Sequence record: MF402939
Strand: one strand, 5' to 3'
Length of the DNA: 64,000 bases
Source of the DNA: Escherichia phage OSYSP
The notes beneath the pieces were generated by a model. That model searched no databases. It worked only from the letters and a program-made list of their open reading frames with translations, and was not told the origin of the DNA. The position numbers and the translations under genes were made by a program. Below are positions 6,333 through 51,455 of this stretch, piece by piece. Each line of letters opens with the position of its first letter. The first letter of the stretch is position 1.

Positions 6333-6775
6333 TTAAAATTAAATTAACTCACCCAGATTGTATGCCTAAGATTGGTTCCGAAGATGCCGCAGGTATGGAT
6401 CTGCGAGCATTCTTTGGTACTAACCCTGCCGCAGATTTACGTGCTATTGCACCAGGCAAATCCTTAATGATTGACACCGGTGTCGCGGTGTCAATTCCGC
6501 GAGGCTGGTTCGGTTTGGTGGTTCCTCGTAGCTCTTTAGGTAAGCGCCATTTGATGATTGCAAACACCGCAGGGGTGATCGACTCAGACTATCGTGGTAC
6601 TATTAAGATGAACCTCTATAATTACGGTTCTGAAATGCAAACTCTGGAGAATTTCGAGAGACTTTGTCAGCTAGTAGTGCTACCACACTATTCAACTCGT
6701 AATTTTGAAATAGTTGACGAACTAGAGGAGACTATTCGTGGAGAAGGTGGATTTGGAAGCTCAGGAAGCAAATAA
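6329..6775 (+). CDS. dut: dUTP diphosphatase
   Basis: dUTPase motifs AAGMDLRA, PRSSLGKRH, GVIDSDYRGTI and C-terminal RGEGGFGSSG. Confidence 0.9.
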   Translation: MIKIKLTHPDCMPKIGSEDAAGMDLRAFFGTNPAADLRAIAPGKSLMIDTGVAVSIPRGWFGLVVPRSSLGKRHLMIANTAGVIDSDYRGTIKMNLYNYGSEMQTLENFERLCQLVVLPHYSTRNFEIVDELEETIRGEGGFGSSGSK

Positions 6776-6995
6776 TTTTACTGATCCTAATATGGTAGGT
6801 ATTGATACTAATATGTCGGCTTATCAGATTAAAACTGAACCAGAAAAGTATGTACTGAAAACAGACAAAGAAGGTAATGTTACTTTCTGGGATCCTGAAG
6901 GTTTTGTGGAGCTTTGTACTAATAGTGACAACGAGCATTTAAAAATACTATTAACCATTTATAATCTTGGTATTATAGAAGGTTGTAGAAGCTAG
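6738..6995 (+). CDS. Hypothetical small protein (GTG start, overlaps dut 3' end)
   Basis: ORF with GAGGAG 8 nt upstream of GTG; no motif recognised. Confidence 0.3.
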   Translation: MEKVDLEAQEANNFTDPNMVGIDTNMSAYQIKTEPEKYVLKTDKEGNVTFWDPEGFVELCTNSDNEHLKILLTIYNLGIIEGCRS

Positions 6996-7001
6996 TTATA
7001 G

Positions 7002-7040
7002 AAAAACCCCAGCGGATTTTGTCCGCTGGGGTTTCTTTTT
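7002..7040. terminator. Bidirectional rho-independent terminator between convergent dut region and tail-fibre gene
   Basis: AAAAACCCCAGCGG-loop-CCGCTGGGGTTTCTTTTT, A-run and T-run on either side. Confidence 0.8.
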
Positions 7041-7052
7041 ACTATGTATACA

Positions 7053-9962: not shown

Positions 9963-10384
9963 TATCTAGTTACCCCATCACTGATAAATACTTTACCCTC
10001 CATTATACGAAAAGAACTAATAGCTGATCCTATGACGTCTCGTGTCATAATTATATCATAGTATCCTGCAAAACGTTGGCGAGGGTTATACTTATCTCTC
10101 TCTTTGGTAGCTTTTTCGCCAATATTATCTACTGCCTCTACAGGTAAACTTATAGCTATAGCACCTTGAGCAGCATCAGTAATTTTAGTAGTAAAAGATG
10201 CCAAAGTTTCCGCATTCTCATCAAGCCCGGCCTTTATAGTACCCCTTAGGGAATACCCTGTTAAGTTAACAGGGGTATTTGTAGGTGGATAAGTACTATC
10301 ATCAACATCTAAGAATTGCATCATTAGACCATAAGGTACTTTCTCATCTATCACTAAGTCTATAACTCTATTTTCAGTACTCAT
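9962..10384 (-). CDS. Tail collar-like protein (T5 p132-like)
   Basis: 140 aa, same length and position as T5 p132. Confidence 0.55.
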
Positions 10385-10390
10385 TATTTA

Positions 10391-12463
10391 TTACCTTATA
10401 TGGATATACCCACTATTTAGGTCTATCTTCATCTTGTAGTATGCCTCAGGATTTCCTGATAACGCAGCGTTCCTATCATAAATGATGTTAACACCGATCT
10501 GAGATAAGAAAGCATTTCCTGCTACAATTTTATCTGCCGTCACCGTCCCGTTAACAATCATGTTTCCGTGGAGAACCATTGCAGGGTTAACCCAACCAGA
10601 CCCGTTCCATTGCCTTGTAAATGCTGATTGTGGGGCATTACTGTTAAATTCAGTTAATACATCATATTTAACTGGAGGAGAACCGAAGTTACTTTGAAAG
10701 AAGGAATTAGCTTGTCCATCATCCCAACCACCTAAACCTGCTATACCTACAGAGTACATCCCAGGACCACGTTGTCCATCATGCCCTATAGTACCTTCAG
10801 TACCACTCCACTGAACCACATCTGACCAGCTAGTACCCTCTAATAACCTATTAGTAACTGGATCAAGTGTACCCGTAGTCGCATAGATATTTTGTGTCAT
10901 ATCTGTACGGTTAGGTGGAGTTTTTGACCAACCAGGAGGTGGATAATCTTGTTCTAGTGGTTTAGCAGGTAGAGATGTTGCTAACTTATAAACAAATACT
11001 GTCTGTTTACCTTGTAAACCAGTTTCAATATCTACGTCACCATTTGGTGTCCCAATTACTACACCACTAGAGATACGCAAGGTAGTACCATCATAACGTA
11101 TCCATTGTGTAGCGTTACCAATGTCTAATTTAGCTTTGGCAGAGGTATTATCCATACCCATCCAAATACCGGAGTTATTATCCCCCCAAGATTTACCTTG
11201 AGTGTAAATTGCTGGGTTATCCTTACCAGATAAGTTAGTCATAATAAAGTTCGCAGCATTAATATCTCTAGTAATTACTTTACCATCAACGTTAACAACA
11301 CGGTTTATAGGGTCGAAAGAAATAGGTGCTTTTCCTTCTTCATCCAGTAGACCAATGTTAATAGCACCAGTAGCTGCGTCGATTAAGAATGTCTGTCTCC
11401 AGATTTCTCCATCTTTCATGCTACCCTTAATAAAGGCATAATTAACGTCAATACCTGTCTCATTGACAAAGCTATTGTCTAGAGGAGTATCTTCATTCAA
11501 TATAAATGTTACAGGAGCTGATTCTGTTATATCTTGCTTATTTGGTCCCCAGGCAATTGATGATACCTTAAAAGTATGCTCAACTTTCCATGGGAATGAT
11601 ATAATCGTTGCAGCTCTAGCAGCCCCAACGTTTATCTTTTGAGCTTTATCCCAGCCAGTCTTAGCGTATTCTTCAGAGTTTATATAAGTAACCAGAAATT
11701 CACGGACATTAGCACCCGCACCACGTTCCCAGTCCCACTCTATTCTGACATCATATCGTTCCTTACCATCTGCAATTCGTGCAGCTTTAAAGGCAATGTT
11801 AGTAGGTGCAGTAGGTGGTACAAAATTATAAGCTACAGTGAAAACGCTAGGATATTCATAATAACCAGATGAGTCAACTGTAACACCATCTGGCATCGTA
11901 ACTTGACCAGATATTCTGATCTTATAGTCGCCAACGGGAACACCACCAAATTTGATAGTAGGTCCCAGCGCGCCTATATAGTATTTAACCCATTCACTAT
12001 CTTCTGATGCAGTACTTTTTAATTCAATAGTGCAGTAACTAGCTTCACCAGTAGTCTCTACAACAACTATTGGAGCACCAACACCAACGTCAACGGGTTC
12101 TGATTCAGATCTTGCTGCAGTAATTATTGGCTTTTCCTTTGTTCTAAAGTTAGTTTCATTAGAGAGGTTTATACCAATTTTTGCATTTAAAAGTTCTGAG
12201 TCGATAATTGAATCATAGAAAGCCCCCTGAACCTGGTAGGTGGTTGAGGGGGTTAAATTATTAATCATTACGAAGAAAGTATCTATACCGGTATAATCAC
12301 GTCTATCTATACTTTCTCCTATTTTTAACCAAAAAGATCTACCAATAACATCATAATCAGTATAAATGGAGTGCTGGACATAAGCCAAAGTATATCCAGT
12401 CATTATACTATTTAAGACCATTTTGGCTGGTGCATTATTTGAAATCATTAAATGGATGCCCAC
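10391..12463 (-). CDS. Baseplate/tail tip protein (T5 pb4-like)
   Basis: 690 aa; position and size match T5 pb4; overlaps upstream gene by 16 nt. Confidence 0.65.
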   Translation of the reverse strand: MGIHLMISNNAPAKMVLNSIMTGYTLAYVQHSIYTDYDVIGRSFWLKIGESIDRRDYTGIDTFFVMINNLTPSTTYQVQGAFYDSIIDSELLNAKIGINLSNETNFRTKEKPIITAARSESEPVDVGVGAPIVVVETTGEASYCTIELKSTASEDSEWVKYYIGALGPTIKFGGVPVGDYKIRISGQVTMPDGVTVDSSGYYEYPSVFTVAYNFVPPTAPTNIAFKAARIADGKERYDVRIEWDWERGAGANVREFLVTYINSEEYAKTGWDKAQKINVGAARAATIISFPWKVEHTFKVSSIAWGPNKQDITESAPVTFILNEDTPLDNSFVNETGIDVNYAFIKGSMKDGEIWRQTFLIDAATGAINIGLLDEEGKAPISFDPINRVVNVDGKVITRDINAANFIMTNLSGKDNPAIYTQGKSWGDNNSGIWMGMDNTSAKAKLDIGNATQWIRYDGTTLRISSGVVIGTPNGDVDIETGLQGKQTVFVYKLATSLPAKPLEQDYPPPGWSKTPPNRTDMTQNIYATTGTLDPVTNRLLEGTSWSDVVQWSGTEGTIGHDGQRGPGMYSVGIAGLGGWDDGQANSFFQSNFGSPPVKYDVLTEFNSNAPQSAFTRQWNGSGWVNPAMVLHGNMIVNGTVTADKIVAGNAFLSQIGVNIIYDRNAALSGNPEAYYKMKIDLNSGYIHIR

Positions 12464-30869: not shown

Positions 30870-32657
30870 TTAGGTAAGGCGTTGAACTGTTACTCTTAAT
30901 CTCGGTAGGAAAATAGCTGCAGCCTCATCAGCGTGAATAATTACGCCCAATTCAGCATTACCATTTCCTAGATTTTTAATAGTATAAATATATCCGTTTC
31001 TTCTAAATGTTAACTCATCAGGTCTACTTGCCCAAGTTTGAGTATAGCTGTATGCAGTAGTGGAGTGATAAGGGACTAAGTATCCAGGAGGTAAGGTTAA
31101 TATTTGATGGAATATTCCATCACCTTCCGTGTAACTATGCTGTCTTCTTCCTTGTACTTGCCAAGCAACACCACCATATGTGCGTATAGCTCCTCCTGCG
31201 GTATTAATATTCCCCATGATAACTTCAGTAGTTAATATTACTGTTGCGTTAGCGTTAGGCAATCCTAATCCTATGGTGGCCAAAGCTCTATAGTAGTTAC
31301 CTGCTCCAGGATATGTTGGAGTTATATCATCGCCAACGTAAGTGCTAGCAACATTATTAGGAAATAGTCTTAAGGGTACAGTACTAGGACTCCACACAGC
31401 TCCATGCTCATTACCTATAGTGTTATTACTTGAGTTTACGTACCATTGCTTACCCGCTCCGAATTTGTAAATACTAATTTGAGACTTAGCCCCTCCATAA
31501 TCTACGGGAGACCATAAAGATCCATTACTAGATCCTACAATTTCACAGCGCGCAGTAGTATCCCCGAAGGCTCCAGTGTACGCTGCGTTATTTCCAATGT
31601 ACTCCATATCTGGCCTATAGCCTAAGTTACCAAAAGCATTTTGGTTGATAAACTTATATCCAGTATTTGGTAAACTAACCCCTTTTATAGTAAAATTAGA
31701 TGGAGTTATAAGTATATCTGACCCAGTAAATGGATTACCGGATACGCCCATATTACCATTAGAGTACCTTAGATTAAGTACATACCAAATAACTTTGGTA
31801 GGTGTAATATTATAACCATCCTGCACATATACTTTCTTAGCGGCCTGTGCTGCTAGATTAGATGTTGAACCTTTACATATATAAACCTTATCAGGGTAAG
31901 TAGGAGATTGGTACAATAAGTTAACATTATCGGGTACTGTGCCTTTTTTACCTACGTAACTTCGTATATTAGAGTTACAAACGTAAAAACAATTATGCCC
32001 TCTATGGGCGGCCCCTATAGGAGCTTGCCAGTTAGGATGCCAGTAGTCAGCATTACCACCGTCTATAGGTACTGTAGACGCTCCCGCTGGAAATCCTGCT
32101 AAAGTCCATGCCCTACCTATAGCCTCACCAGCATATGCTCCTCCCGGCCTATATAAATTAAACCCGGAGGCTTGAGATATAGTACCTCCTGTACCTTGCC
32201 TAGCAATTGATTCTTCATGGCCTAAACCAGAGTTATAAATATAGGTGCCATGTGCTAAACTATTACCTGATGCAAAAGCTGACGTAAGACCTACTTCTGC
32301 ACCTGCCCTACCAATAGGCGGATCTTCAAAAAATGTAGTAAATTGACCAACTTGAGATTGAGTACCATTAAGAAAAGCCCTATGAGTACCATTAATCTCA
32401 ATAGCAGTTAGTATAACTCTACCTGGGTCATTGGATTTAATATTTATTATGTCAGAAGGCATCTGACATACAAAAAACCCATTTCCGGCATTACCTAGCC
32501 CAGCCTCGTAAGTACCATCAACTAGGACAAATGGCATATCACTATGAAAAATACTATTGGCATTTGGACTATAGTGACGATTAATGTCACCCCCAGATTC
32601 AGTATTTAAAGATAGTACGGTCTTACCATCGCTATACTTTCCAGCGAAAAAACCCAT
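30870..32657 (-). CDS. Receptor-binding tail protein (T5 pb5-like)
   Basis: 595 aa; Gly/Asn/Tyr-rich; divergent from and adjacent to a lipoprotein gene exactly as the T5 oad-llp pair. Confidence 0.7.
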
Positions 32658-33850: not shown

Positions 33851-34002
33851 TTTGACTTTTGCCAATTTCTTTGGATTACGTACGCGTGGGTGTGTCCAGT
33901 GGCCCCCCAGATGAGAATGAGTCTCATTACCGCCTGGTACTTAGCAGGCTAATAGTCCCGGCATGTTATCATTACACACCGGGACTATTTCAACTTTAAT
34001 TA

Positions 34003-34737
34003 CTACGCAACTTTTAATTTCTCAATATATTGTTGCGGGCTGCAACTATATTCTGCGCGTTCTTCTTCGGTCATACCTTCCCAACATAATTGCAGGCGGT
34101 CGGCTAGGAACTGATAATCATTATCATCCTCAAGAGATTCATCGATAAAGGTTTCACCTATCAATGTAACCCCAATCGATAGAATATCGTTAACGGCTTG
34201 TGCGTCCAGCGTTTTAAATCCGTATGATGCCGCCGCTGATAGCACGCCTTTATGATCATCAATCATCGTGAAATCAGCGTTCGGATATAATTGTTTAAAT
34301 AACTCAAAGTAATGGCTTTTATAAATAGCGTCTTTGCTGTGGTATATTTCGCTAACTTTATCAGCCTCAAAATATTTGTGTAGTGTATCGCGGGAAAATA
34401 CACGGATATTACTATCCCCACGCCCTCGCAATCCTTGTTTACGCAAATAATAATAATCCGACTTGCTCATCAGTCGAGCGGTGCAAATAATGTTTAATGT
34501 ATTTGCGTCATTCATGCACTGGCGCATATATGTAACAAGGGGCAATAAAGTATCTTGCATTATTAAATCATGTTTGCAGGCTTCATTTTTATACTTATTT
34601 AAATCTAAATTGCCCTCGCTATCAAAGCAAGGCGCTACACGATGGAAAGAATTAATGATAGTGCCGTCCAGATCCCAAATCATGACGCGGGAAATATGCG
34701 GGAAATTACGGGTAATATTCATTTTAACTTGATTCAT
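34003..34737 (-). CDS. dmp: HAD-family 5'-deoxynucleotidase (T5 Dmp-like)
   Basis: HAD motif I IWDLDGTI near N-terminus; start chosen at MNQVK (GGAGAA RBS 9 nt upstream) giving 244 aa; the track ORF extends to 34779. Confidence 0.65.
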   Translation of the reverse strand: MNQVKMNITRNFPHISRVMIWDLDGTIINSFHRVAPCFDSEGNLDLNKYKNEACKHDLIMQDTLLPLVTYMRQCMNDANTLNIICTARLMSKSDYYYLRKQGLRGRGDSNIRVFSRDTLHKYFEADKVSEIYHSKDAIYKSHYFELFKQLYPNADFTMIDDHKGVLSAAASYGFKTLDAQAVNDILSIGVTLIGETFIDESLEDDNDYQFLADRLQLCWEGMTEEERAEYSCSPQQYIEKLKVA

Positions 34738-34817
34738 TTTGTTACGTTCTCCATTAAAGGGATTTAGTTTATCCAGCATTGCCCGCTATTTATCAGCGGG
34801 CAATAATAAATCAACTA

Positions 34818-35210
34818 TTAAAGACCATAAGCCAACGCATCAGCGATAAAACTAATATCTTCACCTGATACGCTGGAACGAATCCCCGCACAAGTATATA
34901 CTTTTGCGCTGATCAATTGATCATCGAGGCAAGCGGGGCAAGGCGCGACAACTGCAAAGGCTAGGCCGGATTTTACGGCGTCGATGATAATCGTTTCTTG
35001 TTTCACAGTATCAACATAAACACCTTTTGCTTTAATATGGCTGGTTAGTTTACCTTGCATATATGCAAAGGTAGTAACCTGCAAAGCGTCATTAAAATCT
35101 AATAGGTCATCAATAACGTGCCCCGCCTCGACGTGGTAACGTTCACCATTAGAATAAACCAGAACAATTGAGGACTGAGCGCGATCGAATGGAATATTTT
35201 GCTTTTTCAT
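34818..35210 (-). CDS. Hypothetical pre-early protein (130 aa)
   Basis: GGAG RBS; CPAC motif; no family recognised. Confidence 0.5.
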   Translation of the reverse strand: MKKQNIPFDRAQSSIVLVYSNGERYHVEAGHVIDDLLDFNDALQVTTFAYMQGKLTSHIKAKGVYVDTVKQETIIIDAVKSGLAFAVVAPCPACLDDQLISAKVYTCAGIRSSVSGEDISFIADALAYGL

Positions 35211-35248
35211 ATTTATAAAACTCCAATTAGTTTAATAATGGATTTAAT

Positions 35249-35506
35249 TTATTTGATAATAATCTGCATCTGGTACGGCGTTAATTCACCGTTTACGGGT
35301 AAATTATTATCGCTCAGCCACTCATAAAAAGCGTCATCGTCATCAAAAGGAACAATATCGTTATCACGGGAATCGACGGAAATAATACCATCCGTATTAG
35401 TTTTGGCGGCTAGGATAGGCCCGAAGCTGTAAACTTTATCAGATTCCATTTCATCCGGTGAAATGAATACTTTTTCGTCTAATGTTTTGGGAAGAGTAAC
35501 TTTCAT
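35249..35506 (-). CDS. Small acidic protein (85 aa), candidate DNA mimic
   Basis: AGGAG RBS; about 19 Asp/Glu versus 8 Lys/Arg including a DDDD run. Confidence 0.5.
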   Translation of the reverse strand: MKVTLPKTLDEKVFISPDEMESDKVYSFGPILAAKTNTDGIISVDSRDNDIVPFDDDDAFYEWLSDNNLPVNGELTPYQMQIIIK

Positions 35507-35561
35507 TTAATTTAGCTCCTATAATAGCGGCTATATTTCAAGCCGCTAGGGTATTAATTAT

Positions 35562-37226
35562 TTACGCGAAAAATTTACCGTTTTTAAAGTCGATCAAAGT
35601 GCGCTGACCGTTTGCATAGGTAATAACATGCGTTTGCGTCCAGCTTGACGCGCCAACGTTGTAACCCATGTCCAGACTACCAGCTACGCCAGCGGTATAT
35701 ACCCCGCCGTAAATGCTTGCCGTATGAGTATGCCCCGTGTTTAATTTGCCCAATTTCTTAAACTGTTTAGGATTGCCACGGCTGCCGTTAATGCCATTGT
35801 GACCGTGTACGCCGCACTCGATGCCTGCAATTTTAAATGATTGGTCAGTTGTTAGGAAAATGGCGTTAAATTCACAACCTGCAACCTTACGCAGCGCATA
35901 ATCAAGCACGTTGAAAGTATCGTCATGATCACCGATTGCCGCGTAAATTGCAGCATTTAGGCGGTGATATAGTTCCGCGTTTGCGGGATCGTCTTTAATG
36001 TTAGCATTACGATCATCAAGCCAACGGGATAGCGCTAAATCGTGGTTTGATTCCACGATGATTGTTTGAGAAAAATCGCGCTCCATTGACTCCAGCACGC
36101 GCCCCGTATCGATGAGATCATCCAGAACCTTATCACGTCCGGCGGCGTATTGTTTTGCTAGGAATACACCCGAAGCGCGGTTGTGATGGTTGCGGGATGT
36201 AAAATCATGCACGTCATGAATAAACTGATATTTAGGCTTGAGAATATCAAGCAAGCTATTTTCGCCAGCCCATGACGCAACGGCGCAATCGTCATCTAAT
36301 TTTTCGGCGTGAATATCGCCATATTGCAAGCCTAAAACATGCCCCGATGTTTCATAACATCCGGCGGGAGTGGCGCAAATATTCAAATCGTAAAACACGC
36401 CGCTTTCGTCCATCGTTTCAAGCTGGCGAACAAAAAATTCTCCGTCTTCGTCAAACTCAACAACAAGCGCACCGAAATTATGCAGCGCCTCGGCCTTTTG
36501 TCCTGCTTTCTGCTGGATGTAATTTTTTAGGGTTGCCGTTCCAGTTGAATACATACGACGCACTACTTCACCTTTTAAAGCTGGCACGCTTTCGGCGGTA
36601 ATTTTAGCGTGACCAATTGCCAGACCTTCCAGATTAAGCGCCGTTGCAGTTTCAGCGAATCCAGAAAGCGGATAATCTGCGGTTGGCAAAACGTTAATTT
36701 CAGCCATGAAAGCAAAACGGCGGTTATTTAAAAACACGTTTTTATTGCAGATATATTTGTCAAATGCGGAATCATATTTTATTCCTTCTGCACCCTCGCC
36801 ATTTTGAAAACCGTTTTTGTTATAAATAAACTTGCTAACCAGCAAATCAGCGCCGATATATTTAGCAAATTGCTCCAGTGAGGCTAAAAAGTTTTTATGC
36901 GGGAAAGTATTATTCTGAATCGACGTAATAATAAAGCGTTTACCCTGCTTTACTTCCCATTGCTCAACCGTGCTAGAAACAATCCCCGCCGCTTCTGGAC
37001 GCTCATCGTTTTTAATGGCTTTTGCTACTTTCGCCGCTTTCGGTTTAGCTGGTTTATTTGCTTCCAACCAGTCGCAGATAGCGGTCGAGTGTTTTGTTGT
37101 ATCGTAGACCGCTTTTGATATATCGTCGCAGACCTCCAGTTTAGTAGCGCGCAGACGTTTACCATAGAAATTAAAGTCAGCGGCCATTTTCAGGATAACG
37201 GTTTGTTTTTCTGCGGAAATAATCAT
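35562..37226 (-). CDS. A1: A1-like pre-early protein with metallophosphoesterase motifs
   Basis: 554 aa (T5 A1 about 556); calcineurin-like motifs GDIH, HDVHD, ESNHD, GHTH; sits beside an A2-like gene. Confidence 0.75.
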   Translation of the reverse strand: MIISAEKQTVILKMAADFNFYGKRLRATKLEVCDDISKAVYDTTKHSTAICDWLEANKPAKPKAAKVAKAIKNDERPEAAGIVSSTVEQWEVKQGKRFIITSIQNNTFPHKNFLASLEQFAKYIGADLLVSKFIYNKNGFQNGEGAEGIKYDSAFDKYICNKNVFLNNRRFAFMAEINVLPTADYPLSGFAETATALNLEGLAIGHAKITAESVPALKGEVVRRMYSTGTATLKNYIQQKAGQKAEALHNFGALVVEFDEDGEFFVRQLETMDESGVFYDLNICATPAGCYETSGHVLGLQYGDIHAEKLDDDCAVASWAGENSLLDILKPKYQFIHDVHDFTSRNHHNRASGVFLAKQYAAGRDKVLDDLIDTGRVLESMERDFSQTIIVESNHDLALSRWLDDRNANIKDDPANAELYHRLNAAIYAAIGDHDDTFNVLDYALRKVAGCEFNAIFLTTDQSFKIAGIECGVHGHNGINGSRGNPKQFKKLGKLNTGHTHTASIYGGVYTAGVAGSLDMGYNVGASSWTQTHVITYANGQRTLIDFKNGKFFA

Positions 37227-37322
37227 ATTAATAAAACTCCATTAAAGGGATTAAAAACGTTTGTTATTGGCAAATATTGCCAAATATAACGCCTTGAATA
37301 ATAGGCGTTATAATTTGCAACA

Positions 37323-37520
37323 TTAATTTAAAGGCATAAGGCTAGAACTAACACCACAAGCAACGGCGGCAATAAAACAAATCAGACCTAAACGCTTTGC
37401 CAATTTAGACTTACGTTTAAAATAATATGAGTCTAAATCATTTTGAAAATAAGCGAATAATAACGAGGCCGCCATAATAAATAAGCCTAGAATGAGGGAT
37501 TCAGTAGGGTAAAAGATCAT
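37323..37520 (-). CDS. Small membrane protein (65 aa)
   Basis: GGAG RBS; two hydrophobic helices. Confidence 0.45.
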   Translation of the reverse strand: MIFYPTESLILGLFIMAASLLFAYFQNDLDSYYFKRKSKLAKRLGLICFIAAVACGVSSSLMPLN

Positions 37521-37576
37521 TTTAAAACTCCAGTCAAAGGGAAATTATAGTGGGGAATATTCCCCACTAATTAAAT

Positions 37577-37984
37577 TTATTCGCCTGCGGCTTGTTTTAC
37601 TTCATCGGCAACGCCTAACAGTTGCGCCACGGCGTCCAGTGTTTCAAGTTTTGCACTTTCCAGACTTGCCAGATCATCGGCGTCTTTGATAATGCCGGAA
37701 TCAATAGCATGTTTAGCGATAACGCGTACATAGTGAGCTTTGCGGATTGAGCTACCGCCGCCAACTTTGCGCGGCTTATCGCTTTTCTGATACGCTTTCG
37801 CGCTGGTCAATTTTGACCGAACGGATACGGGAGAAGCCGCGCCCACTGCTTTTGCAATCTCTTTTAAACCGTAGCTATTTGCGAAATCTAAACCGTTTTC
37901 ATTGATTAACTGCTGATACATGGAAACGGCTTTTTGGGTGTTTTCTTCATTCCAAGCAAATTTTGCGGTTTTAACGTTAGTCAT
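37577..37984 (-). CDS. A2: A2-like pre-early DNA-binding protein
   Basis: 135 aa; GGAG RBS; basic central region; immediately upstream of the A1-like gene. Confidence 0.6.
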   Translation of the reverse strand: MTNVKTAKFAWNEENTQKAVSMYQQLINENGLDFANSYGLKEIAKAVGAASPVSVRSKLTSAKAYQKSDKPRKVGGGSSIRKAHYVRVIAKHAIDSGIIKDADDLASLESAKLETLDAVAQLLGVADEVKQAAGE

Positions 37985-38082
37985 GGTAAAAACTCCTATT
38001 AGTTTAATTTAAGGGATAAGATTAACATAGTGTTAATCATTATATTCCCCATATTTCAGAGGAATATAAAGTTAACACTAAA

Positions 38083-38334
38083 TTATAACACAGCTTCCCA
38101 TTTTTCGTTACGCTGTACAACCTTTACAACGTCGCCGGATTTAACGCGAACGCTAAAAACGGTTTTGCCGTTGTTACTACGTTCATTTTCAGCGTATACC
38201 GCGTCGATTGTATCAAACGGCATAAGCGCCGCACCTTTAATACGTTCGGCTTTTCCGGTTAGTTCATCCGTTTTAGTAACGAAAGGAATAAAAACGGATT
38301 GACCAATTTTAGGCGCGGTAATAACGTTTTTCAT
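38083..38334 (-). CDS. Hypothetical pre-early protein (83 aa)
   Basis: AGGAG RBS 10 nt upstream; first gene downstream of the divergent control region. Confidence 0.5.
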   Translation of the reverse strand: MKNVITAPKIGQSVFIPFVTKTDELTGKAERIKGAALMPFDTIDAVYAENERSNNGKTVFSVRVKSGDVVKVVQRNEKWEAVL

Positions 38335-38370
38335 AATATAAACTCCTAGTTATTTGGGGATTGTTCCGCA

Positions 38371-38395
38371 TTACCTGCTAGAAAGTAGCAGGTAA
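38371..38395. repeat. Perfect 10-bp-stem inverted repeat TTACCTGCTA-GAAAG-TAGCAGGTAA
   Basis: Read directly; lies 37 bp upstream of the 38083..38334 gene start; no flanking T-run. Confidence 0.6.
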
Positions 38396-39223
38396 TAAGC
38401 AACAATCCGCTCACCGCTATAATCAATTTAAAGAACTCCATGCAGGCCGCTATATCCCAGTTAGGGGGCGGGACACATTATGGTAAGTGCCGACCGTCAG
38501 ATTTTATCAAGTTATCGCTCTTATCGAACTGAGTACATCTTAAAGCCTATCGGCTAGGTTGTCAAACAATTTTTTGCAGTTTTTTATAATTCTCTTTCAA
38601 GTCAATCATAATATTTCGCCAGATCATTTCTAAACCTTGCTGGCGGCCTTTCTTGTACTGCGTGAATCGGTATTTTACCGATCTTTGCGCTACTGTCAAC
38701 AAATTTTTTGTTTTGCTGTCCAGTGCCTTGCTAGGTTTACCAGTGATCAATAAAGTTTGTTTCATATCTGCGATTCCTTATAATGTATAAGTTTACCGCC
38801 GATAGACTTTAAGATGTACCCAATTTTTAAAGAGCGCGGCGGTAAACTTCCCGCCGTGTAGTTCGTCATTGCCGCCCTACGAGATAAATAATAAGGGATT
38901 CACAAAAATGGCGCAACCTTATTTTTGTAAAGAAACGTAAAGACAAATGCCACCGGACACCGTGCGGCGACCTGGGCGCGACGCACTAAAATTAAAAGAA
39001 ACGGGCGCGCGAATACCACAAAACATAGCAGATAGGCAAGTAATTTTTTCATTTATATTTGCTTTGCCCTACTTGACAAAATCTAAAAAACTCGTGGTAG
39101 CGATAAACGAGGGTAGGCAATGCAATGGCATGGCTAAAAACTTCATCGCGTTCTAGGGCGTTTTAGGCGCATTCTAGCCTTGTTGATAACTTATCCCCAG
39201 AAGCAAAAATGAAATTTTCCTAG

Positions 39224-39633
39224 TTATCCACTTGACTTTTATTTTCCAGTGGATAACTACTTATTTTATAAAATAAATTAATTGACTTTTATTTGTTAGT
39301 ATGCGTCGGAAAGATAGCAGACTAATAATTGCTAGGATGATAATCATGCTGGTGGATTGTAACGGCTTAAATTATTAGCAGACTATTAATCACGGAAAAT
39401 CTCATTAGCCAACTAACTATTTCATGATATATAATATACTTATAAATTAAGGAGAAATAATAATTATAAGAAATAATAGCTACAGTAAATATTAACTATA
39501 AGAAACTATCGGCCTAAGTGAGAACCACTATCATTTAAGTTATCCACAACGTTATCCACAGCACAAAATGATTTGACATAATAGGCGGTGATATAAGGAC
39601 TTTTACACAGACTTATCCACAGCTTATCCTACT
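39224..39633. promoter_or_regulatory. Divergent control region with DnaA boxes: inverted pair TTATCCACT/AGTGGATAA (39224-39256), palindrome TTATTTTATAAAATAA, perfect TTATCCACA boxes at 39540, 39552 and 39613
   Basis: Exact matches to the E. coli DnaA box consensus TTATCCACA read directly; duplicated TTGACTTTTATTT on both sides of the palindrome. Confidence 0.6.
39405..39435 (+). promoter_or_regulatory. Candidate promoter for the rightward pre-early operon
   Basis: TATAAT at 39430-39435 followed by ACTTATAAATTAAGGAGA, resembling the other early promoters; -35 is weak. Confidence 0.35.
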
Positions 39634-39914
39634 GTATAAATATACAAGGTAAAAAGGTAGTGTTAACAACTGCAATCAATTTTAAGCGGCCTAAAACGCT
39701 TTCTAACGAGCTAAATGCGGTGGGGTAATATTAAAGTAAAGTCTTCACCCGTCGCCCTGGTGGCTTCACTGTGTTTTGCTCTTTATTGCACCGCTGCGCG
39801 GTTAGCATAAAACTAGGCGCTAGGCAAGGAAAATAAAAAGGTAAAATAATATTTGCCCCTAGAAAGAAAATACCTTTATCATTCACTCACCGATTAACGA
39901 GGGAGGCCGAACAA

Positions 39915-40907
39915 ATGAGGCTTTATAAACCAGATAACGCAACCGTCTTAAAAGGTGCATTGCGCAACCTGCTGGATGGTAGCAGAACAACCAGCATTAA
40001 ACATTTTGTTTTCAATATTGAAACACTTCATCGTAATTTTCTTGATGATTACGATGCTTATAATATGAATAGTTTTCTACCGTTATATAATCAAGGGGCA
40101 ACGCTTGTTTTATATAATCAGGAATCTCACTTGCTTACTAGTCGAGGGCCAGATACTGATTTTATTATAGTGAAAGGCAGTACAGTAAAAGCCTATGATG
40201 CGGGGGCGGGCTTAGAAGTTTTCACGATAGAAAATTATGAGCCTTATGATAAGGATCTTTATGACGTAGAAAATTTTCTCGATTCATTTTGGCGTTATTT
40301 ATCAATTGGGTGGAATCGATCAGATTATCACGGGTATCGTTTTGCGGCTATAATGGCTTTTGATGATAACGGTAATTTTTTGCTACCGTCGGAATTATAC
40401 CCGTATGTATATAATGATTTAATAGAGGAGGCTGGTTTTACTTTCTGGAAAGATGAAGATCAGCCTATTGACAACACGGAAAAACATGCTGTAAATTCTA
40501 ACACTCAAAGCGTTAACACTCAAACTACTGAAAATAAAGGGAAAAATACTATGACCAAGATCGCTAACATCGTTGCCGCTAATAAATCCGCTGTTGTAAA
40601 CGCTGCAAAACTGGAAGCGGGTAAAATTGCACTGACTCAAATCACGAAAGTAGCGGCTAAAAAACCGCCGTTTATTATCAAGGGTTATATTGATACGCCG
40701 ATTGGTCGGGTAGTGATTGCCAACCTGCTGAGTGTAGCGGTTGACCAGTACGCCCCGAGTAACCAGAAAGCGAAAGCGGTAGCAGGAGCGGCTATGGAAG
40801 CGGCAATGCTAGAAATGGTGCAAAGTTTTAACATCGCTGAAATGATCGATGAAATGGTAAAAGGTATCGATATTTCTACTTTCACCGTTAACAACGAAAG
40901 CGAGTAA
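39915..40907 (+). CDS. Hypothetical pre-early protein (330 aa), two-domain
   Basis: Strong RBS GAGGGAGG; N-terminal domain, Asn/Thr/Gln-rich linker, Ala/Lys-rich C-terminal domain; no family recognised. Confidence 0.6.
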   Translation: MRLYKPDNATVLKGALRNLLDGSRTTSIKHFVFNIETLHRNFLDDYDAYNMNSFLPLYNQGATLVLYNQESHLLTSRGPDTDFIIVKGSTVKAYDAGAGLEVFTIENYEPYDKDLYDVENFLDSFWRYLSIGWNRSDYHGYRFAAIMAFDDNGNFLLPSELYPYVYNDLIEEAGFTFWKDEDQPIDNTEKHAVNSNTQSVNTQTTENKGKNTMTKIANIVAANKSAVVNAAKLEAGKIALTQITKVAAKKPPFIIKGYIDTPIGRVVIANLLSVAVDQYAPSNQKAKAVAGAAMEAAMLEMVQSFNIAEMIDEMVKGIDISTFTVNNESE

Positions 40908-40971
40908 TAATATTAAGCGGGGATTGTTACCCCGCTTTAATGTTCCCTTGTTAATTAATAGGAGGCTAATT

Positions 40972-41466
40972 ATGTCAGAAGAAAAATATGGCTTCTCACT
41001 GGGAGAAGTGAGCACGGCTAAACACGATATGATCATTTTGGTCGATTGTCATACTGGCTATTGCGGAGAAGGCTGGACGGAGGAACATTTTGTTCCAGCT
41101 GGCTGTAATCTGGACGCTTTCGCTCAGGAAATGGCTGTTGATAATGCTTCTCGTTTCGGTAGCGATGGCTATGAAGACGAGGAAACTGGCGAATGGTATG
41201 AAAATGAAAACGTATACGCTAGTCTTTATCATTATCAATTAAGTAAATCCGGCGCATATGTAAACGGCGGCGATCCTATTAATTCCATCATGAGATTAAT
41301 TATTAAACATGGTGGCGTCGAGATAATTGATAACAAAGCGGTAATATACGCAAACCGATTAAAACAGCTTGTTTATATTCCTGATAATACCCGATGGGAT
41401 GAATATGCTGTTTTGCATGACGAATTGAAACGATGTTTCAATATTGAATCCTTACAAGTAGTCTAA
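40972..41466 (+). CDS. Hypothetical pre-early protein (164 aa)
   Basis: Start at MSEEKYG with RBS AGGAGG (the track ORF begins at 40924); acidic, Cys-containing. Confidence 0.55.
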   Translation: MSEEKYGFSLGEVSTAKHDMIILVDCHTGYCGEGWTEEHFVPAGCNLDAFAQEMAVDNASRFGSDGYEDEETGEWYENENVYASLYHYQLSKSGAYVNGGDPINSIMRLIIKHGGVEIIDNKAVIYANRLKQLVYIPDNTRWDEYAVLHDELKRCFNIESLQVV

Positions 41467-41571
41467 TGTAAAGTTTTGTAAAGGTCGCCTTTTATGGTGG
41501 CCTTTTTTGTTATAATGCTTTTACACCAAAACGGTGGATTGAAAATTTTCCCAAAAATTTGGAGGCTTAAA

Positions 41572-41802
41572 ATGGTTGCATACTCTTCTGCTAGTCATCT
41601 GTTTACCGCGCAAGGCTGGGTATCTAATCGCGTCATCATTCATGAAATGGTGCAGGAGTTCGGCATTGCTAAAACTTACACTACCATTCAGGAACTATAC
41701 AACGCCGATAAAATCGATCAGCAAACGGCTGGCTTTTTGCTGGATACCCTGAAGGCGGAACATTGCACCAAAAAACAAGCCGCTAAAATTGTTTTAATGT
41801 AA
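41572..41802 (+). CDS. Hypothetical pre-early protein (76 aa)
   Basis: Start at MVAYSSA with GGAGG RBS (the track ORF begins at 41494). Confidence 0.5.
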   Translation: MVAYSSASHLFTAQGWVSNRVIIHEMVQEFGIAKTYTTIQELYNADKIDQQTAGFLLDTLKAEHCTKKQAAKIVLM

Positions 41803-41848
41803 TTAATAACGGGGCGTTATTTTCGCCCCGCTAACTAGGAGAATGAAA

Positions 41849-41998
41849 ATGGTTATTTTTCGAGCTATTCTGGCAGGTATCTTGGGCGCTATTTTATCGT
41901 TGTTTGCAATAGCTTTCGGTGTTCACGCCGTTATTGTCGGCGCGGGTATCGCCGTTTTTTCTTATCTGCTGGGCTGCATGATTAGTAAAGGAGAATAA
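41849..41998 (+). CDS. Small membrane protein (49 aa)
   Basis: AGGAG RBS; two hydrophobic stretches; below the ORF-track length cutoff. Confidence 0.45.
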   Translation: MVIFRAILAGILGAILSLFAIAFGVHAVIVGAGIAVFSYLLGCMISKGE

Positions 41999-42000
41999 AA

Positions 42001-42213
42001 ATGATCCGCAACGTTTCTCTTGCTCGTTCGAAAGGCTTTAAGCTGGTGGACGTTAACACGTTCGAGCGTGAAGATTGTAAAATCGAATATGTAGCGCGGA
42101 ATAAAAACGCCTTTCGTGTTACCGAGAAAAAATTCGATAAGCGCGGCAACGTGGTCGCTGAAACGGTTAAACATTTTGCCACCTTTTACGCTGCGTTTCG
42201 TGGGGTACTATGA
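42001..42213 (+). CDS. Hypothetical pre-early protein (70 aa)
   Basis: AGGAG RBS; basic; ATG 3 nt after the previous stop. Confidence 0.5.
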   Translation: MIRNVSLARSKGFKLVDVNTFEREDCKIEYVARNKNAFRVTEKKFDKRGNVVAETVKHFATFYAAFRGVL

Positions 42214-42335
42214 AAAGCGTTATCATTATTAGCCTTGCAATGGTTGGCGGTTTTACCGCCACCTTATTTAAAAATGATCCCCTTTTACTGGGGATTTTTA
42301 TGCTTTTATCTGGCTATCTGATTGGGAGGTTATAA
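42210..42335 (+). CDS. Small membrane protein (41 aa)
   Basis: ATG overlaps previous stop (ATGA); hydrophobic throughout. Confidence 0.4.
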   Translation: MKSVIIISLAMVGGFTATLFKNDPLLLGIFMLLSGYLIGRL

Positions 42336-42336
42336 A

Positions 42337-42681
42337 ATGGTAATTTATGAAGGCAATCGTTTTGTTGCTAATTGCCGTCCTGCATTGCTAGCAAATTACT
42401 TAAATCAGCTTTCACCAGCTTATAAGGGCGTTATTAATATTTATGAGGGCAAAGTGCATTATAAGGTTAATGCGGTCGTTGCCCGTGAACTAGCGTTTCA
42501 ATTTTTGACCTTTGCATCTTGTGACGTTCAGGTTATGGGTGAGGCGTTAATTGCAGAAAATGAAGATGATTTTATTAACATTTTTCGCAAGATATGCACC
42601 GAGCGCCTGATCATGAAAGGCGCTTATATTCAATCCACTGCGGATAGTATTGAAACAGCGTTTCGAAAGGTGGCGCAATGA
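42337..42681 (+). CDS. Hypothetical pre-early protein (114 aa)
   Basis: Start at MVIYEGN with GGGAGG RBS (the track ORF begins at 42322). Confidence 0.5.
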   Translation: MVIYEGNRFVANCRPALLANYLNQLSPAYKGVINIYEGKVHYKVNAVVARELAFQFLTFASCDVQVMGEALIAENEDDFINIFRKICTERLIMKGAYIQSTADSIETAFRKVAQ

Positions 42682-42836
42682 AAAAGTTTTTAATAGCTGG
42701 CATGTTTCCGTTGTTGCCTTATGTAATTTGCTGGGCTTTATATGCTCATGGTGCTAGTGTTCCCGGTGTGGCTTCATTTGGTGTATCGGCGGGCTTTCTA
42801 GCTGGACTATTGGCAAGCGTATATTTACGCAAATAA
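42678..42836 (+). CDS. Small membrane protein (52 aa)
   Basis: ATG overlaps previous stop (ATGA); two hydrophobic helices. Confidence 0.4.
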   Translation: MKKFLIAGMFPLLPYVICWALYAHGASVPGVASFGVSAGFLAGLLASVYLRK

Positions 42837-42855
42837 TTAATAACGGAGCGTTATT

Positions 42856-43050
42856 ATGAGCAATAAAATTGTTGTAACCAAAATCAGTACAATGGTTGAT
42901 GTTTTTTACGTGCCCGATACGCCGGAGAATCGGCGAGCGGTCGAGCGTGGCGAGTATGATAAAGTGATTTATGATCACGATGGTTACTATCAACATTTGG
43001 TGGATTCCTACGGGGAGGAGGAAAAAATCACGCATCGACTACCAGACTAA
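42856..43050 (+). CDS. Hypothetical pre-early protein (64 aa)
   Basis: Last gene of the rightward operon; preceded by palindrome AATAACGGAGCGTTATT; acidic. Confidence 0.5.
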   Translation: MSNKIVVTKISTMVDVFYVPDTPENRRAVERGEYDKVIYDHDGYYQHLVDSYGEEEKITHRLPD

Positions 43051-43090
43051 TAATCACGGGGCGCAACTACCAGGGAGTGCCCCCAATTCT

Positions 43091-43113
43091 CAAATGAGAA
43101 TCATTCTCATTTG
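43091..43113. repeat. Perfect 23-bp palindrome CAAATGAGAATCATTCTCATTTG
   Basis: Read directly; same core as the 43447-43608 repeat family. Confidence 0.7.
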
Positions 43114-43128
43114 ACTGCGCCCGCGATG

Positions 43129-43187
43129 GTTAGCCTGCTAATGATTAGGGTGTTACGTGTCGCCTTGTGTGATCGTTAGCAGGCTAA
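43129..43187. repeat. 13-bp inverted repeat GTTAGCCTGCTAA / TTAGCAGGCTAAC with 33-bp spacer
   Basis: Read directly; could form a large hairpin. Confidence 0.6.
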
Positions 43188-43334
43188 CTAATTTTTAAGC
43201 CTCCTCCAATTTTGCCCTTGTTTTAGTACCCCCACCAAAATTAAACGCGTTAGAATGCGATCTAGGACGTTTTAGCGGTATACTAGAATTATTCACTACA
43301 TAGGAATACTGTATATTTATACAGTAGGATATCC

Positions 43335-43416
43335 TGTGGATAAGTCTGTTAATAACGCCTCAAAATGGCTAGGATTCTGTCAAATCAAATCGTGCTGTTA
43401 ATAAGTCTGTGGATAA
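43335..43416. promoter_or_regulatory. Two consensus DnaA boxes (TGTGGATAA) in repeated context CTGTTAATAAGTCTG
   Basis: Exact reverse-complement matches to TTATCCACA at 43335-43343 and 43408-43416. Confidence 0.55.
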
Positions 43417-43446
43417 CTTAAATAACAGTGTTTCTCACTTCCATTC

Positions 43447-43608
43447 TTAAATGAGAATCATTATCATTCGCAGTCCACTGTCTAACCGATAATCATTTCC
43501 TTTCTTAAATGAGAATCATTTCACTTTTTGAATAGTTCTCATTTCCTTTCTTAAATGAGAATAATTATCATTCGCATTCCACTTCTTAAATGATAATGAT
43601 TCTCATTC
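43447..43608. repeat. Five copies of 24-bp motif CTTAAATGAGAATCATTATCATTCG (one inverted), Fur-box-like
   Basis: Copies at 43447, 43504, 43550 and inverted at 43584, plus palindrome at 43091; core matches 15 of 19 positions of the E. coli Fur box GATAATGATAATCATTATC. Confidence 0.6.
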
Positions 43609-43637
43609 AAAGTCGCAGGGCAATTGCCCTGCGCTTT

Positions 43638-44239
43638 TGTGCAAATCCGACATTGCTCCACGGGTGTTACGTGCGGGCATGTATGTGCGAATCCGACAAT
43701 TTTTGGTAGTGTGCGAATCCGACCCTAAAAACTTTTGTGATGTGCGAATCCAACAATGAATTTTCCCAAAAACTCCAGCAATCACGAACTGCGTTCGAAT
43801 CCTGTGGGATATGTGCAAATCCGACACGGTTTTTCTAGGATTAAGATGTGCAAATCCGACAAGATTTTTGTGACTTCGATGAGAGGGTGTGTGATTGTAT
43901 AGGTTTGAGGAGAAGATGAGAGAGCGAGAAAAGTTTGGGAGGCTAGAAGGATGCGGGCGCAGGATTGGTGCGGAGCACCTGATTTGCGGGGATTTTGGGG
44001 AAGAGTTGAGATAATTTGGGAAGATTTGAGATAGGTGCAGAAAAAGTAAAATTTTATTAGCAAAATGGGGCAAAATAGCTTGACAAGTGAAAATTTCTGT
44101 GGCTCTAAAAACTCAGGCAATCATGGGCCTTCGGCCCGAAATAATGCTGCCATTTTCAAGAGATTATATGTTCCTAAAAACTTAGGCGTTTGTGCAAATC
44201 CGACCATAAATTTCTAGGAACACAATGTACAAATCCGAC
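43638..44239. repeat. Nine direct copies of 15-bp motif TGTGCRAATCCGACA
   Basis: Copies starting near 43638, 43684, 43711, 43741, 43812, 43847, 44190, 44225 and a degenerate one at 43785; motif has partial dyad symmetry. Confidence 0.65.
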
Positions 44240-44280
44240 AGTAATTTCTGGAAATGTGTTTTCAAAAAATGTCTCCTAGA

Positions 44281-44340
44281 AATAACCGCCCTCCCTATAA
44301 CCGCCCTGTATTAACCGCCCTGTATTAACCGCCTATTGCT
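44281..44340. repeat. Four tandem copies of about 14 bp AACCGCCCTNTATT
   Basis: ATAACCGCCCTCCCTATAACCGCCCTGTATTAACCGCCCTGTATTAACCGCCTATT read directly. Confidence 0.6.
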
Positions 44341-44761
44341 AGAGTTTCTAGGAATATGAAAACCGCCTGAGTTGACTAGAGAAACAGATTTAAAGTTTAA
44401 TGTAAACTCTAGAGTTAGTGCTCAACTATTCCTAGAAACTTAGGAGTCTAGAAGAAAGTGTTGTGCCATCCTAGCAGATGAGCGGCAACAGGTGTATCAT
44501 CTTGAACACAAATATTGCCTTTAAATATTTTTAGTTATTTAAAAGTAAATATACCCCCATTTCATGAGAGCTTACTCGTGGGGCGCGTGAGTATTACGGA
44601 AGACTTAGTAATTAGATCTATACTCGTGCTGTCGCAACGTATAGACGTAATACTAAGTGTAATAATCATCGCCCCTAGAGTTCAAAACAAGAGTTGTTTT
44701 TAATCTATGAGATTATTATAACATGTGCCGCAATGAGTTGTCAAGAAGATTTTGTTAATGT

Positions 44762-50861: not shown

Positions 50862-51455
50862 TTAGACATTTATATCGCCACGCAATACAGCAGCTACGTC
50901 TTCTCCTATTTGTAATACCTCGCCGGTAGTACAATTAACCACTCTATCGTAACTAGTAAACTTACCAGACACAATATCCTCTAGTGGAATTGGAGTTCTA
51001 CTCATTTCAAATGAGACATTAATATAACGTGGATCACGTAAAGAAGTAGTATGTACATGTCCGTGAATATTTAGTTTGCCACGAAGTTCATTAGGGTGCA
51101 AAGGGCAGTGAGATAGCCAAAACTTTTTGCCACCTCCAGTCTGTTTGCCTAGAGCTTGAATATCGTCATAAACTTCCGCTAAGTCCCTAATACTCAGTCC
51201 TTGACGCTCCGCATCATGATTACCCATAATGAGTTGATTAGGGACATTGTGGATAACCGACTTTAATTTGGCCAGACCTTCACGACCTACTGCAATATCT
51301 CCTAGCAAAATAAGTTTTGTTCGTTTACCAATATGCTTGGATAAAGTATTTAGAATATACTCATCGTGCTCTTTCATGTTCTTAAACCACGGACGGAAAC
51401 GTAGTGCTCCAGGGTGGTCTAAGTGCAAGTCTGACCAGAATTTAACCTTCATCAC
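50862..51455 (-). CDS. Calcineurin-like metallophosphoesterase
   Basis: Motifs SDLHLD, GDIAVGREG, GNHD, GHVH. Confidence 0.65.
   Translation of the reverse strand: MMKVKFWSDLHLDHPGALRFRPWFKNMKEHDEYILNTLSKHIGKRTKLILLGDIAVGREGLAKLKSVIHNVPNQLIMGNHDAERQGLSIRDLAEVYDDIQALGKQTGGGKKFWLSHCPLHPNELRGKLNIHGHVHTTSLRDPRYINVSFEMSRTPIPLEDIVSGKFTSYDRVVNCTTGEVLQIGEDVAAVLRGDINV

Follow-up and report, generated by a model that had tools for sequence, protein, structure and literature searches.

The entry of T5 DNA into the host stops after 8% of the genome and later restarts, a question that dates from the 1960s and for which a cis-acting stop signal has never been defined. Connected with this question is an interval (positions 39181-39640) in a 64,000-nt stretch of Escherichia phage OSYSP (sequence record MF402939; this whole stretch is called the window here), which an original prediction had described from the sequence alone as a divergent control region dense in boxes for the host protein DnaA. 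These boxes figure in what is so far the only concrete molecular hypothesis for the T5 stop, namely binding of the stop region by membrane-bound DnaA. Our analysis placed the boxes in a 131-bp module, consisting of inverted repeat C (IRC), a spacer and inverted repeat D (IRD), that occurs in two inverted copies and whose ends resemble the operators of LexA and Fur. The reading that we favor, with a little less than even confidence, is that the module would be a landing pad for host proteins on duplex DNA in first-step transfer (FST), with an architectural role in which the proximal copy would be accessory.

Homology identifies the source phage as a T5/BF23-like Tequintavirus. The 1.2 kb spanning the interval matched 450 phage records, the top matches of which (92-94% identity) included BF23, Baret, mar004NP2, and numerous T5-like Salmonella and Escherichia phages, and the gene order in the window was that of the T5/BF23 terminal repeat. 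The same comparison identifies the interval as Repeat Region 1+2, an untranslated part of the T5-like terminal repeat. All of the motifs listed in the original prediction were read directly from the sequence where it had placed them, with the second TTGACTTTTATTT starting at 39282. The three DnaA boxes that it had called consensus, at 39540, 39552 and 39613, are indeed perfect copies of TTATCCACA; a fourth strict box, TTTTACACA (39601-39609), which lies 3 bp from the box at 39613, had been overlooked. Four sites within 39540-39621 thus agree with the strict consensus TTWTNCACA, and they form two head-to-tail pairs (39540/39552 and 39601/39613) with 3-bp gaps, the pairs being 61 bp apart. The predicted density of consensus boxes was also real: six perfect TTATCCACA were observed in the window against 0.78 expected, a number reached in 0 of 100 shuffles, and five of the six sit in the two 131-bp elements. 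The sixth lies outside the terminal repeat (51248-51256, minus strand).

The two module copies, which bracket the rightward pre-early operon (approximately 3.7 kb of genes), are complementary through arms of 67 nt (82%) and 51 nt (86%) (39516-39646 versus 43310-43440). The T5 record AY587007 annotates the proximal copy as IRC (6022-6060) and IRD (6112-6152) and the distal copy as D'/C' (9332-9462); by homology, the modules of the present phage would be located approximately 5.6-5.8 kb (proximal) and 9.4-9.6 kb (distal) from the left genome end. The minus strand of the distal copy carries TTATCCACA at 43335-43343 and 43408-43416 and TTATTAACA at 43347-43355 and 43396-43404. The single-strand fold of the 131-bp module was not significant (z = -1.3), and an Rfam scan of 38300-44400 gave only chance matches below the family gathering scores. 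The DnaA boxes are putative sites, and their binding of host DnaA is plausible.

The layout of these boxes in Repeat Region 2 is already known, because the same eight-box arrangement was described by Davison (bioRxiv 10.1101/866236, 2020). In the 25 T5-like phages of that study, eight DnaA/DnaA* boxes were found, always in pairs 3 bp apart, with one pair in each of IRC, IRD, IRD' and IRC'. Davison proposed that membrane-bound DnaA binds the boxes and halts DNA transfer, and later papers restate this proposal, calling it experimentally untested. The text of the preprint does not mention LexA or SOS. In the searchable literature, outside which some earlier T5 papers fall, we found no link between LexA, the SOS box or Fur and the T5 stop region.

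What is new here is that a sequence resembling an SOS/LexA box closes each module and a Fur-like box opens each. The gammaproteobacterial LexA operator (SOS box) has the consensus CTGT-N8-ACAG, AT-rich in its interior and flanked by TA. The inner end of each module is a palindrome of the form CTGTAT-N4-ATACAG, abutting the DnaA-box array; in the proximal copy, TTATCCTAC starts 2 bp past DnaA-box pair 2 and overlaps the flank of the SOS box. The distal sequence TACTGTATATTTATACAGTA differs from the LexA consensus TACTGTATATATATACAGTA by one mismatch (19/20), and 100 shuffles yielded 0 such matches. CTGT-N8-ACAG is present in the distal copy, whereas the proximal 20-mer carries ACAA at its right end and departs from it. 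Among the relatives, 23 of 28 distinct proximal copies and 28 of 30 distinct distal copies retain the motif.

The Fur box is written either as GATAATGATAATCATTATC or in the 7-1-7 form TGATAAT-N-ATTATCA, and the aerobactin iucA operator contains AATGAGAATCATTAT. The pattern TGAKAAT-N-ATTMTCA occurred six times in the window against 0.22 expected, always inside the terminal repeat. Measured against the 7-1-7 form, the sites at 43452, 43556 and 43591 match at 13 of 14 positions, the site at 43095 (TGAGAAT in both arms) at 12 and the site at 34112 at all 14. The candidate at the outer end of IRC, TGAGAACCACTATCA, is probably a weaker Fur-like site than the others; the repeat search paired its surroundings (39519-39539) with the Fur-like repeat at 43585-43605. 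Four of the palindromes, equivalent to the T5 repeats DRC/palE-I, lie where the shear and stop point is presumed to be.

The module is well conserved among T5-like phages. The proximal copy is 82-95% identical to its homologues in T5, BF23 and 37 IMG/VR loci (82% to T5 and 92% to BF23 over the full 131 bp), and the two copies occur together in 40 of 41 T5-like loci. When 58 distinct copies of the element from T5-like phages were aligned, the positions of the DnaA boxes proved to be kept, and boxes 1 and 4 together with the LexA 20-mer are the best-conserved columns (1.73-1.78 bits versus 1.41 elsewhere). Box 1 is TTATCCACA in 45 of the 58, and box 2 is variable. When the four boxes were pooled, positions 1, 2, 4, 8 and 9 were nearly invariant, position 3 was A or T and position 5 could be any base; the variation, lying mainly at positions 3 and 5, where DnaA tolerates it, fits TTWTNCACA and lends indirect support to DnaA binding. 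The motifs are the parts shared by the two copies, and the spacers are copy-specific, each conserved between phages.

This pattern bears on the idea that the 131-bp copies are a functionless relic, the terminal inverted repeats of a once-mobile cassette that carried a variable operon. The inverted copies do flank approximately 3.7 kb of rightward-operon genes that are poorly conserved among T5-like phages (bioRxiv 10.1101/866236), and an HNH homing endonuclease has inserted nearby in T5. However, spacers that are copy-specific and individually conserved imply long independent maintenance, and the motifs outlast the neighboring genes in conservation, keeping the host consensus where A1 is only 28-42% identical. 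We consider a relic very improbable.

The association of the motifs extends beyond the T5-like phages. In all 17 distant Demerecviridae loci examined (A1 28-72% identical; hosts Klebsiella, Erwinia, Proteus or Vibrio, or uncultured phages), the pre-early region combined perfect TTATCCACA boxes with one or two neighboring LexA boxes close to consensus, and perfect boxes were still found there when A1 was only 28-42% identical. Among the relatives the four central bases of the LexA palindrome vary and CTGTAT...ATACAG is fixed. A search of IMG/VR for TTATCCACA-N(2-25)-CTGTAT-N4-ATACAG returned 81 stretches, compared with 3 for a control with the reversed 9-mer and 15 for a version with the box inverted; these counts are inflated by relatedness and correspond to approximately 12 independent groups versus three for the control. 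The DnaA-then-LexA composite is enriched in phages: a scan for a host chromosomal counterpart gave only 15 stretches in 596 Gb of bacterial genomes, where one 3-kb contig (L149), which may be phage DNA, had two matches 2.3 kb apart. The LexA/DnaA pairing was seen in the relatives L042-L047 and L053-L125. One uncultured Demerecviridae-like locus (L076, A1 35% identical) carries 14 perfect TTATCCACA within 3.3 kb of its pre-early region (7275-10572), an array far denser than that of T5, and three others (L065, L094 and L125) carry 6-7 each.

Beyond the T5-like contigs, the IMG/VR matches include groups without A1 or A2 in the fetched flanks; one is distantly related to ICP2-type Vibrio phages, and others, from uncultured phages, have a T5-type terminase. 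Several of these groups show, within approximately 75 bp, a Fur-like palindrome followed by tandem DnaA boxes and, in some, an SOS box. The compact order of Fur-like palindrome, TTATCCACA-GG-TTATCCACA and SOS box was seen in uncultured contigs whose fetched flanks showed neither A1 nor A2; contigs with the compact form are L079, L098, L101, L121 and L123 (40-46 kb); L073, L075, L078, L092 and L112; L048; L082, L093 and L122; and L155-L163. In L075 and L112 the motifs have a leftward terminase-type operon on one side and small rightward genes on the other. A comparison of LexA covariation with host class in A1-carrying alphaproteobacterial phages was not applicable; a T5-type pre-early region was not found in the 22 kb examined of Rhizobium phage RHph_N1_15, and in RHph_I40, which is T7-like, A1 belongs to the replication module.

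These observations raise the possibility, which we advance tentatively, that the conserved unit is a composite pad for three host regulators, comprising, in this order, a Fur-like box, tandem DnaA boxes and an SOS/LexA box. It is likewise possible, at a similarly modest level of confidence, that this pad is kept twice, in opposite orientations, on the DNA that enters first in the Demerecviridae loci examined, and in compact form in unrelated uncultured phages. The same comparisons make it improbable that the motifs are instead sites for phage proteins, for example A2 or A1 and A2 together, that restart transfer or cut the DNA, with their likeness to host operators incidental. Second-step transfer requires both A1 and A2, the latter a predicted DNA-binding protein; homologues of A2 accompany the motifs throughout the family, and Davison proposes an action of A1/A2 at palindromes in this region. 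Yet each of the three motifs is very close to a separate host consensus (DnaA 9/9 several times, LexA 19/20, Fur-like 13-14/14), the motifs stay constant while A2 falls to 32-42% identity, and the composite also occurs in the contigs whose fetched flanks contain neither gene.

During first-step transfer the cell contains only the first-entering DNA and host proteins, so that any cis function at that stage has to rely on host factors, a point in favor of the landing-pad reading. The module would act as duplex DNA, with four DnaA boxes flanked by the Fur-like box on the outer side and the SOS box on the inner side. The incoming DNA would be tethered, paused or marked by the bound complex, mainly at the distal copy where the injection stop is concerned, with the proximal copy in an accessory and dispensable role; the complex may also insulate the rightward operon. 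The agreement of the motifs with three host operators and their deep conservation also favor this reading. In addition, a second FST band of approximately 5.8 kb (Rhoades), unexplained and close to IRC, is cited by Davison, and the proximal module lies at approximately 5.6-5.8 kb from the inferred left end. Should the pad be the three-regulator composite, it would let the phage build, from host proteins, a nucleoprotein complex for pausing or tethering the incoming DNA; alternatively, it could read the replication, DNA-damage and iron status of the host before commitment to second-step transfer.

Several points weigh against this reading. A published T5 mutant deleted from hegG to 017 is viable and forms smaller plaques. 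The primers given for its construction map to AY587007 5360-5392 and 9082-9107, so that 5393-9081 is deleted; this removes IRC-spacer-IRD (6022-6152) with its boxes and leaves the distal copy, inside which the right-arm reverse primer falls. Under laboratory conditions T5 can thus do without its homologue of the proximal box cluster, because the hegG-017 deletion removes it and the phage grows; this statement rests on our own primer mapping, and the authors of the mutant do not discuss the repeats. The proximal module therefore has at most an accessory role. Moreover, the proximal LexA box in the window has lost one half-site, and position 6 of the DnaA boxes is A in approximately one quarter of the copies (often boxes 2 and 3), which lies outside the strict consensus. 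The compared sequences share a phylogeny, and the counts overstate their independence. We infer binding of DnaA, LexA and Fur to the module and, with it, the pausing role; the physical means by which proteins on DNA that has already entered would stop further entry is not obvious.

The original prediction had offered host DnaA as a regulator of pre-early transcription or as a protein recruited or titrated at the interval. Recruitment is plausible, given perfect and conserved boxes. Titration has no obvious target: one or two FST copies amount to few boxes, and the host chromosome is destroyed early, within minutes of infection by T5. Titration of DnaA or LexA as the main role was rejected on these grounds of copy number and early chromosome degradation.

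Regulation of transcription has more to recommend it, although we still regard it as unlikely. It would have DnaA, possibly with LexA, bound to the module so as to repress, activate or roadblock pre-early transcription, with targets such as the predicted promoter at 39406-39435, the small leftward ORFs (open reading frames) or read-through into or out of the rightward operon. DnaA boxes repress or block transcription at dnaA, mioC and asnC. The interval lies between divergent transcription units, and the distal copy, located shortly after the final operon ORF, is in a sensible place for a roadblock. Promoter-like sites numbered 15 in 38300-40000 against 5.0 expected, among them (+)39406..39435 and (-)39666..39639. 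The former, the best site inside the interval, lies in an AT-rich tract approximately 105 bp upstream of the first DnaA box and has similar sequences in BF23 and T5; the -10 element of the latter overlaps the LexA-like box.

The promoters known from T5 point elsewhere. T5 is stated to have three experimentally characterized pre-early promoters, including one upstream of gene 011, and the homologues of all three fall outside 39181-39640; the DnaA-box cluster is more than 230 bp from the rightward homologue and more than 800 bp from the leftward ones, which are likely the equivalents of P_H22 and P_D/E20. No DnaA box overlapped or adjoined a homologue of a mapped promoter in the manner of DnaA-regulated promoters of the dnaA, mioC or nrd type; only weak predicted sites overlapped boxes, and none of these is conserved between the window, BF23 and T5. 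The invariant TTGACA of the spacer has no -10 element, and the TTGACT and TTGACA motifs were rejected as promoters since no usable -10 lies at 16-18 bp. No terminator-like sites were found in 38300-40000. What stands of the predicted divergent control region is that it is free of ORFs (none of at least 30 aa between 39156 and 39715) and separates divergent units; it is non-coding DNA between them and not demonstrably their control region. With the mapped promoters outside and a viable T5 deletion that covers the homologous element, the data do not support an essential part in controlling transcription, and regulation of the promoters by DnaA is, given these distances, the weaker part of the proposal.

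The AT-rich tract (39380-39500) directly to the left of the boxes also brings to mind an origin-like element, at which DnaA would open the first-entering DNA for replication or priming. Davison called the box layout "reminiscent of oriC", and some relatives have 7-14 perfect boxes. This explanation is nevertheless highly unlikely: the same author places the T5 origins near the genome center and the replication functions on second-step DNA, which is unexpressed during first-step transfer; the module, which exists as an inverted duplicate, can be dispensed with in T5; and no 13-mer repeats of an unwinding element were identified, no systematic search for them having been made.

In the left half of the interval, the predicted inverted DnaA-box pair is a genuine inverted repeat with perfect 12-bp arms, TAGTTATCCACT (39221-39232) and AGTGGATAACTA (39248-39259), but its cores, TTATCCACT (39224-39232) and AGTGGATAA (39248-39256), one per arm, match a DnaA box at only 8 of 9 positions and depart from TTWTNCACA at position 9. 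As RNA, the repeat would form a stable hairpin (-21.4 kcal/mol, z = -4.8). The TTATCCACT pair was confined to a single clade, being found in 11 of 31 distinct loci, the T5-type allele differing in sequence there, and relatives from Klebsiella and Erwinia retain a single TTATCCACT. An alignment of 19 distinct relatives resolved the approximately 90 bp to the right of inverted repeat B (IRB) (39170-39260; T5 5310-5392) into two alleles. The BF23-type allele of this window has TTATCCCCA and the TTATCCACT pair, and the T5-type allele lacks these DnaA-like sites; TTGACTTTTA, the AT palindrome and AATTAATTGAC are common to both. The two alleles are old. The T5-type HNH (hegG) insertion starts directly behind the conserved AATTAATTGAC, immediately past the second TTGAC.

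The interval is bracketed by IRB and IRB', the T5 counterparts of which are at 5285-5310 and 6184-6209. By homology the terminal repeat would span approximately 33,880 to 43,620. The record is probably a permuted assembly in which two terminal repeats were collapsed into one, because unique DNA flanks the single copy at both of these ends. To the left of the repeat, a 595-aa ORF (30870-32657, minus strand) could, from its position, encode a receptor-binding protein. An inverted repeat A/A' (IRA; 38516-38554 and 38798-38836; 39 nt, 82% complementary) overlaps the P_D/E20-type promoter with its left arm, and its right arm carries the -10 region of that promoter a second time, in reversed orientation. 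Eight copies of the 18-nt direct repeat ATGTGCRAATCCGACA (43637-44242), the equivalent of direct repeat D in T5, extend across the point inferred to be the inner end of the terminal repeat. Just past the repeat region, the leftward sequence TTGACA-18-TATAAT at 44715-44744 (minus strand) is a perfect 12/12 sigma-70 match with an extended -10 (TG) and is presumably an early promoter.

Table 1. Features of the 64,000-nt window, with the module and its motifs first
Feature	Position	Strand	Basis or remark
IRC-spacer-IRD module, proximal copy, 131 bp	39516-39646	+	inverted-repeat pairing with 43310-43440
IRD'-spacer-IRC' module, distal inverted copy, 131 bp	43310-43440	-	candidate injection-stop region; T5 annotation 9332-9462
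Putative DnaA-box pair 1, TTATCCACA-acg-TTATCCACA (boxes 1, 2)	39540-39560	+	sequence scan
Putative DnaA-box pair 2, TTTTACACA-gac-TTATCCACA (boxes 3, 4), with the following TTATCCTAC	39601-39632	+	scan, direct-repeat family
TTGACA, invariant, mid-spacer	39573-39578	+	alignment; no usable -10 element
SOS/LexA-box-like 20-mer TACTGTATAAATATACAAGG, proximal	39630-39649		right half-site degraded, ACAA for ACAG
Near-consensus SOS/LexA box TACTGTATATTTATACAGTA	43307-43326		inner end of distal module; T5 "palindrome D"
Fur-like 7-1-7 site TGAGAACCACTATCA, outer end of IRC	39519-39533		12/14 versus TGAKAAT-N-ATTMTCA
Fur-box-like palindromes (T5 DRC/palE-I repeats)	43095-43109, 43452-43466, 43556-43570, 43591-43605		pattern scan
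Fur-like palindrome near left end of repeat	33912-33926		pattern scan
Fur-like palindrome inside dmp coding sequence	34112-34126		pattern scan; may be fortuitous
Near-consensus "DnaA*" box TTATCCCCA	39191-39199	+	BF23-type allele only; variant type listed by Davison
Perfect 12-bp inverted repeat TAGTTATCCACT/AGTGGATAACTA	39221-39259		15-nt loop with TTGACT
AT palindrome TTATTTTATAAAATAA	39261-39276		read from sequence
Direct repeats TTGACTTTTATTT flanking AT palindrome	39232-39244, 39282-39294	+	read from sequence
IRB, left bracket of interval	39142-39168	+	repeat search; partner IRB' 39689-39715
Likely P_D/E20-type homologue, TTGACA-17-TAAGAT	38565-38537	-	scan; overlaps IRA; T5 annotates T5P1 and T5P2
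Likely P_H22-type homologue, TTGACA-16-TAAAAT	38699-38672	-	scan; T5 annotates T5P1 and T5P2
Rightward promoter homologue, TTGCCC-18-TATCAT	39853-39882	+	scan; upstream of 330-aa ORF; T5P4 annotated at T5 6331-6420
Predicted promoter-like site, TAGCCA-18-TATAAT	39406-39435	+	consensus scan, 10/12
dmp	34003-34779	-	T5/BF23 gene order
A1	35562-37226	-	554 aa
A2	37577-37984	-	135 aa
Small leftward ORFs	38762-39052	-	between A2 and ORF-free gap
330-aa ORF, equivalent of T5 gene 011	39915-40907	+	rightward ORF after the ORF-free gap

What the present analysis adds to the DnaA hypothesis for the T5 stop is the presence of near-consensus operators of LexA and Fur type in the modules, the occurrence of the composite far beyond T5, and the dispensability of the proximal copy in a published mutant; these additions narrow attention to the distal copy and to three host proteins.

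Among known systems, the module is most like T5 Repeat Region 2, having the same 131 bp in the same place between the A2/A1/dmp and gene-011 units and an inverted partner approximately 3.7 kb away; it shares with T5 and BF23 the four box positions in two pairs with 3-bp gaps, at 82-92% identity. The present phage differs from T5 in retaining four strict proximal boxes, of which T5 has lost one, and in lacking the HNH insertion that separates regions 1 and 2 in T5. It also has the BF23-type left allele with the extra inverted TTATCCACT pair and a mutated proximal SOS half-site.

The chromosomal DnaA-box clusters of E. coli (oriC, datA and DARS1/2) contain several consensus 9-mers, TTATCCACA, in fixed register with an AT-rich neighbor, and the module resembles them in its clustered TTATCCACA beside AT-rich DNA. 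Its pairs have a register of 9+3 bp, in contrast to the 9+2 bp of the oriC arrays, and unlike all of these clusters it is carried by a virulent phage, as an inverted duplicate, beside LexA and Fur-like operators. The distal TACTGTATATTTATACAGTA is like LexA operators at 19 of 20 positions, but it overlaps no mapped or conserved promoter and is located in a virulent phage, fused to a DnaA-box array in which TTATCCTAC overlaps TACTGT. The Fur-like sites differ from Fur boxes in being arrayed in non-coding DNA at the edges of the terminal repeat and in preferring G at position 4 (TGAGAAT).

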